This document shows, one piece after another, positions 39,899-41,186 of a DNA stretch of 64,000 bases (within the stretch, counting starts at the first letter, position 1; each line of letters opens with the position of its first letter). The notes beneath the pieces were generated by a model. That model saw nothing but the letters and a program-made list of their open reading frames with translations. It did no database searches and was not told where the DNA came from. Position numbers and translations under genes: made by a program. Origin of the DNA: Klebsiella phage Sealy. Location: the sequence record PQ337358.1; one strand, written 5' to 3'.

Positions 39899-40654
39899 AT
39901 AGACCTCGTCAATTAGTATCTTTAAGAACTCTCGTGAAAGCTCTTAAAGATACCGCCAGTAGCAGGGGACGAATCCCCCTATTAAGCGTCTCATTGGTAC
40001 GCACTACTGTCAGACATATCTTCCAGTTATAGTCAGGGTGACTAATATAACCCCACATAGTCTCCACAGCGGGGCACACTCCAAACAGGGGCACTTCTAG
40101 CCTGTGTAAGGGTGCTATAAATAGTGGTTATGCTTTCGCTCGGGGTGACTCCGGTCATGACTCCATTATCACATGCTTACACAGGGTATACGAGCTTCCG
40201 CGGAGCTGTATACTCAACCGTGTCCCACTTAGGTCTCGGAGCGGCCGTTTGTACGAACGGATATCCGAGTACTCTTTCCCACTTAGAATCAGGCGAGATC
40301 CCACCTCGCCAAAGTTCATACGATCATCATGCCGTATTTAAGGATTATTTTCGTCACTTAAAGGAGAGACGTCCTCCACGCGGTCTGTTAAAATCACACC
40401 TCCGAATTTTCGATGTGAAGTTTTGATAGCTTGAAAAACGACTCCTCGTGGAGGAAAAACTTCACTATCTAGGCTACCGCCTAAAGTTCTTCTTTTGATT
40501 TGGGCATATATCAGGTAAGGGTAGCCAAATCAGCATCCTAGTCCTTCGTGGTTTAGCTGTTTCGTTCCCGCGAGTCTCCCAAGTCTTTCCCTGGGAGGGG
40601 AGGAGGTACTCCAGCAGCGAGTGGTTCGCCAATAGAACCATCAGTTATCAAGCT

Positions 40655-40745
40655 CTTTCCGACCGCAGGATTCGAACCTGCACTTTCCGCATCTGGGGAT
40701 AGCTCCCCGCGTGCAGAAGTCTACCAATTAACTTAGGACGGCAGT
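40655..40745 (-). ncRNA. tRNA-like module (D-arm plus bulged long hairpin plus T-arm) inside a 1.25-kb ORF-free transcript
   Basis: T-arm GCAGG-TTCGAAT-CCTGC, D-arm AAGT-TAATTGGTAG-ACTT; the anticodon arm is replaced by a GGGGA-GCTA-TCCCC hairpin; no pairing acceptor stem. Confidence 0.3.
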
Positions 40746-41186
40746 GTTGCTACATAAGTGATTTCGACACCCCACTATGGCGGCAATAACTAGCACCAGA
40801 CGCTATACACATGTCTCCAATTTGCAGCCTAGGCAGGTTAGTGTGGGAGCTATACGAGTTTCTCAGGCTCAGCTCCCCACCTCTCCGGCAGGCCACGCAC
40901 CATGCTTCATTCTGGTCGAACAAGTTAAAGTGAGATTCCACCATTTTCTATAAATCAGGAGAAGAGTTTACGAGACTCCGGGACAGCTCCCGAGTTTTAC
41001 AAGAGATCTCTAACCTACGCCCGTCCAATACGCTCCCTGGCCGGTATCCGGACTGGATGCACGGACTTTGTCAGGTGATCACTCTTAACTCACCGATTCT
41101 ATTCAACGAATCTTAATGCTCGAGGAGTCTTACATTAAAACAAGTTCAGCGTAATCGGCCCGCTGTTCTCTCTAATTTATGAAACT

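Follow-up and report, generated by a model that had tools for sequence, protein, structure and literature searches.

An enlarged counterpart of the T5 stable RNA RNAX, probably a structured non-coding RNA, borders the tRNA cluster of Klebsiella phages Sealy and Shiner

The closest described relative of the element studied here is an RNA listed in the records of phage T5. The T5 record AY543070 contains a misc_RNA named rnaX, annotated as 'RNAX, stable RNA with unknown functions' (719 nucleotides, nt). According to the record, rnaX has its own promoter and its 3' end exactly abuts the 5' end of tRNA-Arg(UCU). The same rnaX annotation is present in phage DT571/2 (NC_047749). Our literature searches found no paper on RNAX, and Rfam has no family for it. 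We analyzed a 64,000-nt stretch of DNA from Klebsiella phage Sealy (PQ337358.1; referred to here as the window). An initial annotation of this stretch, made from its letters alone, had pointed to a segment of about 1.25 kb lying behind a leftward promoter and free of long open reading frames (ORFs), and had listed a long structured non-coding RNA among the candidates. We conclude that the segment is likely an unannotated, enlarged ortholog of T5 rnaX, that is, a non-coding RNA, about 1.27 kb long and driven by an early promoter, that has a conserved multi-domain fold and probably acts as RNA. The RNA itself is already listed in T5 records; what is new is the much enlarged copy and, as far as we found, the first structural analysis.

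Between positions 39900 and 41200, the sequences of the window and of Klebsiella phage Shiner (PQ283208; Demerecviridae, Sugarlandvirus) agree at 100% identity, and we refer to the window copy of RNAX as the Shiner copy. PQ283208 has no annotation between a SleB-like coding sequence (CDS; window 41201-41662, minus strand) and a small CDS (39572-39898, minus strand) of unknown function in that annotation. ARAGORN found 24 tRNA genes, clustered and without exception on the minus strand, and the segment lies at the upstream end of this cluster. As observed before, it is richer in G+C than its surroundings (0.48 versus about 0.36-0.45 in the flanks). The promoter and the RNA were delimited as follows.

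41187-41215, minus strand: sigma-70 promoter of the T5 type, with -35 TTGCCT, a 17-nt spacer and a TG-extended -10 TATAAT (promoter scan)
39913-41180, minus strand: the whole RNAX-type non-coding RNA, about 1268 nt (homology to T5 rnaX and non-coding tests)

The leftward early promoter had been recognized in the initial annotation. It overlaps the stop codon of the SleB-like CDS and, together with the downstream ATAAATTAGAGA, is kept in all 14 aligned relatives. ATAAATTAGAGA is the kind of sequence with which transcripts from strong T5 promoters such as PN25 typically begin. The homologous site is annotated in the T5 record as promoter 'P 16-17'. Judging from the spacing, the 5' end of the RNA would be the A at 41180, seven nt past the -10 box; RNA positions given below equal 41181 minus the window position. 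A second promoter-like site, TTGGCA-18-TAAAAT, is present at 41221-41250 within the last part of the SleB-like CDS; it precedes the RNAX promoter by 35 nt.

Using blastn, we found the segment to have homologs in 525 phage records, the hosts being Salmonella, Escherichia, Klebsiella, and other enterobacteria. Query positions 423-778 aligned with T5 (AY587007) and DT571/2 at 75-77% identity, and a second block shared between the relatives and the query spans 1157-1301. Searches by nhmmer with a core profile recovered all T5-like loci. The genomic context is conserved as well. In 13 fetched relatives, including Pectobacterium phage DU_PP_V from another subfamily, the order is a SleB-like gene, usually two small ORFs, the promoter, an ORF-free stretch, and tRNA-Arg(UCU). 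RNAX and the tRNA cluster share one strand, on which RNAX follows the SleB-like gene block and precedes tRNA-Arg(UCU). The window RNA and T5 RNAX agree in genomic place, strand, promoter type, core motifs, tRNA-like arm, a hairpin with the loop AGUCAUGA, and the terminal hairpin, and further invariant motifs are common to both. They differ in size (642-725 nt in T5 and DT571/2 versus about 1268 nt in the window), and the window RNA has two extra 5' domains, further insertions, and an elongated hairpin where T5 RNAX has a short anticodon arm. Measured from the predicted start to the terminal hairpin, RNA length ranged from 642 to 1623 nt across 70 loci, with the Shiner copy among the longest. 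The 3' surroundings are also different. In T5, the terminal hairpin ends 6 nt before tRNA-Arg(UCU), and in most relatives RNAX adjoins this tRNA directly. In Shiner, by contrast, the terminal hairpin ends 17 nt before the ATG (39898) of the next CDS. Two small CDS occupy 39393-39898 between RNAX and tRNA-Arg(UCU), encoding 108 amino acids (aa; PHROG 18988, unknown function) and 58 aa (no family); T5 has none.

Outside these phages, 50 loci around distant SleB homologs contained no RNAX match, and the syntenic place in Vibrio phage Bennett was equally devoid of one. In bacterial and archaeal species-representative genomes we obtained 110 pattern hits, all due to chance, as were two odd matches in IMG/VR. 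A metagenome scan returned four T5-like contigs from human gut.

The evidence for a conserved fold comes from compensatory changes between relatives. Our all-against-all helix finder was noisy until it was restricted to pairs changed on both sides. We aligned 20 distinct sequences over RNA 400-560, termed module B, which contains the following elements.

40640-40762, minus strand: 12-bp interrupted stem bearing the tRNA-like arm at its tip (RNA 419-432 with 528-541)
40657-40742, minus strand: tRNA-shaped arm (RNA 439-524 of about 1268; Rfam tRNA match)
40623-40639, minus strand: hairpin GGUUC-UAUUGGC-GAACC, directly after the 12-bp stem

In module B, 88.3% of the cells were standard-paired, compared to 31-42% when the partners were slid, and 22 pairs were changed on both sides, compared to 3-7 in the slid controls. 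None of 500 shuffles reached the observed values. Run unguided, RNAalifold returned the same helices with 18 of 28 pairs compensated, and the acceptor, D, and T stems co-varied. G.U cells outnumbered A.C cells by 62 to 5, which indicates a constraint on the minus-strand RNA and not on DNA. The 12-bp stem was paired in 98.8% of the cells, with both sides changed in 8 of its 12 pairs, and was predicted de novo by RNAalifold. The hairpin that follows it was 96% paired, its stem appearing elsewhere as GCUUU/AAAGC, GCUUA/UAAGC, or GCUUC/GAAGC.

The tRNA-shaped module with T and D arms described in the initial annotation was confirmed by the Rfam tRNA model (RF00005), which matched it with 35.1 bits, above the gathering score of 29, with a 19-nt insertion in the anticodon loop. 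The arm combines the acceptor-like stem GCCGUCC/GGUCGGA, a D arm whose loop carries GG, and the T arm GCAGG-UUCGAAU-CCUGC, whose loop is canonical; where a tRNA would have its anticodon arm, there is a closed hairpin of 30 nt. The corresponding arms of T5 and DU_PP_V scored 38.3 bits and that of phiR2-01 scored 26.4, and the model did not match EPS7; the anticodon loop in relatives has 6 nt (GUAACU or UUCACC). The acceptor stem, which had been thought not to pair, does so in 5 of 7 positions in Shiner and in 7 of 7 in T5. It co-varies through the compensated forms GCCGUCC/GGUCGGA, GCCGACC/GGUCGGU, GCCGAUC/GAUCGGU, GCUGAC/GUCAG, and GCCAGA/UCUGG. The last of these is the form found in the EPS7/S116/Sepoy lineage, in which a plain hairpin replaces the cloverleaf and the underlying stem is kept. 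The tRNA-like arm is therefore a peripheral, exchangeable module. Its position at RNA 439-524 is not that of a 3' module, as it had first been called, and a tRNA-derived regulatory RNA finds no support as the main description of what is a far larger RNA.

Despite passing the Rfam score, the arm is not a tRNA. It lacks a 7-nt anticodon loop, free 5' and 3' ends, and CCA, and it sits at the tip of the 12-bp stem, to which it is connected by AAGAG after the acceptor stem and then an internal loop. ARAGORN did not include it among the 24 tRNAs that it found, nor did it report a transfer-messenger RNA (tmRNA). No parent gene was identified among the phage's own 24 tRNAs, the best identity being 67%. 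We also compared the arm with larger RNAs that have tRNA-like domains, namely tmRNA, the bacterial Y RNA YrlA, and the mascRNA of MALAT1; the Rfam scan gave no YrlA/Y RNA or tmRNA match in the segment. The tRNA-like part of YrlA is attached through its anticodon side, whereas the RNAX arm is attached through its acceptor side.

Upstream of module B, the RNA contains two 5' domains, and a long-range helix connects this part to the 3' portion.

40950-41180, minus strand: 5' domain 1 (RNA 1-231), closed by helix P1
41166-41180 with 40950-40963, minus strand: helix P1 (RNA 1-15 with 218-231)
40779-40942, minus strand: 5' domain 2 (RNA 239-402), closed by GGUGG/CCGCC
40772-40778, minus strand: 5' strand AUAGUGG of long-range helix LR1 (RNA 403-409)
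40121-40127, minus strand: 3' strand CCACUAU of LR1 (RNA 1054-1060), part of the universal AUAACCAC motif

P1 was 96.4% paired in relatives, with compensatory changes at five pairs, and the inner helices of domain 1 at RNA 22-28/83-89 and 33-37/74-78 were also supported. T5 has P1 as a simple hairpin only; in Shiner, about 200 nt are inserted in its loop. Domain 2 is confined to the longer versions of the RNA (Sugarlandvirus, Eos, S116, EPS7, and phiR2-01). Its closing helix was 100% paired with three compensatory pairs, and its inner hairpin RNA 305-311/329-335 was supported. LR1 closes about 650 nt and was 97.4% paired, with GUGG/CCAC becoming ACGG/CCGU in Pectobacterium phages. We discarded an inner extension of LR1, GUGU/GCAU, in view of its overlap with a local hairpin that co-varies strongly. 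The same hairpin is overlapped by a candidate pseudoknot, GCUCG/CGAGC (RNA 986-990 with 1039-1043), which rests on essentially two sequence states.

The central region and the 3' domain are composed of the elements listed below.

40173-40622, minus strand: central region (RNA 559-1008), with the conserved motifs AAACCAC and AAGUGGGAAA
40145-40172, minus strand: two-tier hairpin with the invariant 8-nt loop AGUCAUGA (loop 40155-40162), which holds the palindrome UCAUGA
40132-40139, minus strand: minimal hairpin GC-GAAA-GC just 5' of AUAACCAC, 4-6 bp and of different sequence in relatives
40045-40120, minus strand: Sugarlandvirus-specific insertion (RNA 1061-1136), with two alternative cassettes among isolates
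40031-40043, minus strand: conserved hairpin AGUCA-CCC-UGACU (3' domain alignment)
39954-40016, minus strand: 3' multi-helix junction with the outer helix CUGACAGUAG/CUACUGGCGG, two inner hairpins, and a conserved CUUAAU
39916-39953, minus strand: 17-bp terminal hairpin GUAUCUUUAAGAGCUUU-CACG-AGAGUUCUUAAAGAUAC

An alignment of 16 sequences of the 3' domain gave 86.2% paired cells versus 39-53% in slid controls and 16 doubly changed pairs versus 2-6; 0 of 500 shuffles matched these values. The terminal hairpin was 98.2% paired, with six pairs changed on both sides. The outer helix of the junction appears in relatives as CUGACGG/CCGUCGG, UGACAG/CUGUCA, UAGACG/CGUCUG, or UGACUAG/CUAGUCA, and the minimal hairpin appears as GUCCU/AGGAC, GUUCU/AGAAC, GCACU/AGUGU, UCAGC/GCUGA, UCACC/GGUGA, or GGAG/CUCC. 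The AGUCAUGA loop was identical in 35 of 36 non-redundant relatives, and both tiers of its hairpin co-vary (GUGAC/GUCAC, AGGC/GCCU, AAGC/GCUU, AAAUU/AGUUU). Such a loop could form a kissing dimer or a pseudoknot or serve as a protein site. The loop can also base-pair with the UGACU strand of the conserved hairpin AGUCACCCUGACU (40031-40043), for which the partner in Pectobacterium phages is GCAUGACUU.

Two further observations concern possible alternative states of the molecule. GAAGAUA (40017-40023) can pair with UAUCUUU (39946-39952), which is the 5' strand of the terminal hairpin. One position of this site co-varies with both possible partners, and in the S116/EPS7 type the terminal hairpin has a C.A mismatch there and the alternative pair is G-C. 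This pairing may represent an alternative conformer. In the middle of the RNA, a terminator-like hairpin, CCUCC-ACG-AGGAG at 40442-40456, is followed by UCGUUUUUC with its U run and is kept in T5; some transcripts could stop here, or the hairpin could just be a section of a longer imperfect stem.

RNAX is modular, with hairpin cassettes inserted or exchanged around a constant core. Relatives share its blocks in mosaic fashion. Among Sugarlandvirus isolates, the RNA is nearly identical except for whole hairpin cassettes that have been exchanged, including those of the central region. In Escherichia phage IrmaTschudi (our locus L010, 1516-1998), a CDS annotated as 'putative homing endonuclease' directly follows the RNAX promoter and replaces the 5' domain. 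T5 AY543070 (L015, about 1960-2080 of the locus) has an 83-nt tandem duplication of the AGTCACCTTGAC...AAACTGGAA segment, which accounts for the 725 nt of T5 versus the 642 nt of DT571/2. The element can also be lost altogether. Both rnaX and its promoter are missing from the T5 st0 deletion mutant (AY692264), which is viable. Its wild-type sequence resumes only within the upstream ORF, and 18 kb of this record (26000-44000) contained no RNAX motif or profile match. rnaX is therefore dispensable for laboratory growth. The deletable region of T5 also holds tRNAs and known counter-defence genes, one of which, ORF071 (Rad), lies a few genes downstream (PMC10644984). Six more small 'stable RNAs' are recorded among the T5 tRNA genes: RNAIII, RNAI, RNA1, RNA2H, RNAIV, and rna2 (L252, T5 st0 AY692264 locus 4288-7087).

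We considered four other explanations of the segment. It might be a long processed leader or spacer of the tRNA-Arg operon, composed of decayed tRNA genes and gene remnants and lacking a function of its own, with the arm as a pseudogene. This would suit its place in a cluster of 24 tRNAs and the fact that most relatives run straight into tRNA-Arg (a tRNA T-loop lies at most 110 nt from the terminal hairpin in 53 of 82 loci). The pseudo-tRNA label that T5 gives to the tRNA-like element, the dispensability of rnaX in T5 st0, and an unexceptional folding energy are likewise compatible with it. However, motifs of 8-13 nt are invariant across subfamilies whose SleB proteins share only 46% identity, and compensatory changes keep the helices paired, including the long-range helix across about 650 nt. 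Moreover, the RNA has its own strong promoter, and Rfam finds no tRNA besides the arm in the segment up to E = 10. We therefore regard a leader or spacer as improbable and favor an autonomous structured RNA with an accessory role in infection.

A large structured RNA that is conserved and whose unpaired motifs are invariant could also be a self-splicing intron or another ribozyme that has gone unrecognized, or a tRNA gene split by an insertion; the 19-nt insertion in the Rfam tRNA match would be in keeping with the last of these. In the same vein, the initial annotation had considered the remnant of an intron-containing gene. No group I or group II intron or ribozyme family was matched in the window segment or in five relatives at thresholds of up to E = 1-10, and the flanks contain no exon halves. 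In addition, relatives either have 6 nt in the loop of the anticodon arm or lack this arm entirely, and the acceptor-like stem runs into the 12-bp stem and leaves no free ends. We consider these explanations quite unlikely.

The mosaic exchange of cassettes, the homing endonuclease gene inserted in one relative, and palindromes such as GTCATGAC and AGTCACCCTGACT might instead suggest that the segment is no RNA gene but acts in cis as DNA, for example, as an origin of replication, as a hot spot of recombination or homing, or as an array of protein-binding sites. Against this, the excess of G.U over A.C in the tested helices marks a single-strand RNA constraint, a conserved promoter faces the segment, and T5 annotates a stable RNA here. 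We find a DNA element very hard to reconcile with these results.

The remaining possibility is that the segment encodes proteins. Some GenBank homologs (e.g., OQ790079, OR896843, and our loci L133 and L137) carry 4-6 'hypothetical protein' CDS over RNAX, and the tRNA-like arm is labelled tRNA-Pro, -Gln, -Sec, -Ser, 'OTHER', or pseudo in various records. The earlier statement that no ORF exceeds 64 codons on either strand holds for the transcribed strand, where the longest encodes 64 aa; it does not hold for the plus strand, which has a 100-aa GTG ORF at 40124-40426 that is no longer than expected from shuffles. When all frames were considered, the longest stop-free stretch also equaled the shuffle expectation, both in Shiner and in ten relatives. 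Among Sugarlandvirus isolates, 58 of 67 insertions and deletions were not multiples of three, and isolated substitutions fell 20/12/18 by phase, with no 3-nt periodicity. The six longest ORFs had no Pfam match and a single weak PHROG match (E = 0.0046). Therefore, even though several records place CDS here and ORFs of 54-100 aa exist in the window, we can practically dismiss several small proteins, as ORF lengths match shuffles, only 9 insertions or deletions are multiples of three, codon phase is lacking, other annotators call nothing, and ORF positions are not kept between relatives that differ by cassette swaps. The small-protein and odd-tRNA labels over RNAX are probably mis-annotations.

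Several points weigh against an RNAX ortholog with a conserved multi-domain fold. The 'stable RNA' label is a GenBank note in the T5 and DT571/2 records. The T5 record puts the RNAX 5' end 7 nt downstream of the expected +1, and the 5' end in the window is uncertain by that amount. Folding energy in 150-nt windows averaged z = -0.67 inside the segment and -1.0 outside; the segment, described at the outset as full of imperfect hairpins, does not exceed chance in this respect. Whole-molecule minimum free energy models, constrained or not, had 36-42% of differing cells paired in 25 relatives outside Sugarlandvirus, the same as slid controls. Part of this outcome stems from exchanged cassettes, which align poorly. 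Since these models were unsupported, only the core helices are demonstrated and not a full model, and any fold proposed for RNA 560-1000 or for the Shiner-specific insertions would be tentative. Finally, given the dispensability in T5 st0, the function of RNAX is conditional or minor in the laboratory. On the other side stand the homology to T5 rnaX, the non-coding tests, and the co-varying core helices. No conserved coding frame emerged, the sole Rfam match, even at permissive thresholds, is the tRNA model on the arm, and conservation is extensive. The initial observation was thus partly confirmed, and its main interpretation, a long structured non-coding RNA, was right.

How such an RNA might work can be outlined from its architecture. 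With both its 5' and 3' ends buried in helices, it would be stable. In T5, an RNase P cut at the adjoining tRNA-Arg would generate the RNAX 3' end. In Shiner, a nuclease might cut near the terminal hairpin, or the RNA could be the 5' part of a longer transcript that includes two ORFs and tRNA-Arg. The tRNA-like arm retains the acceptor/T stack and the D/T elbow, and it may be recognizable by RNase P or other elbow-reading enzymes and thus provide a processing site or a handle. The arm is not the core function, because one lineage lacks it. We would place the core function in the invariant unpaired motifs and loops, with the palindromic loop as a contact that might act in self-association, in a tertiary contact with UGACU, or toward a host factor. 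A specific mode of action, by RNA-only assembly or by host-factor binding, can be proposed only with considerable doubt. The role in infection would be accessory, of the same general kind as that of GOLLD and ROOL, the large ornate RNAs that phages encode in their tRNA islands.

This large, strongly conserved structured RNA, for which we found neither an Rfam family nor a published structure, occurs in more than 500 relatives of T5 and in T5 itself, a classical model in which deletion, complementation, panels of defence systems, and structure probing are all routine. A covariance model for RNAX would correct the spurious small proteins and odd tRNAs in T5-like genomes.

GOLLD (RF01998) and ROOL (RF03087) resemble RNAX in several respects. 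All are several hundred to more than 1000 nt long and are encoded by phages in or near tRNA islands. GOLLD varies in its 5' part and is conserved in its 3' part, and its linker sometimes contains a tRNA (PMC12286853). RNAX is similarly built, with a variable 5' part, the tRNA-like arm, and a universally conserved 3' part, and its palindromic conserved loop could make a kissing contact, which would be a further likeness to GOLLD and ROOL. With regard to the homo-oligomeric RNA-only nanocage as a trait of those RNAs, this loop is the one hint in RNAX. In contrast, no similarity of sequence or motif to either RNA is known, and their covariance models gave no match in the window segment (to E = 10) or in five relatives (to E = 1). 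As a speculative analogy to which we give little weight, RNAX might be a third, sequence-unrelated class of giant ornate tRNA-island RNA that is functionally analogous to GOLLD and ROOL. Such a compact particle might self-associate via the palindromic AGUCAUGA loop or capture a tRNA-binding host factor, with the arm as an exchangeable accessory, and might help the phage to infect its natural hosts, for example, by countering defences directed at tRNA or translation. Large ornate phage RNAs are a current puzzle, and RNAX represents a comparable object in easily manipulated hosts.

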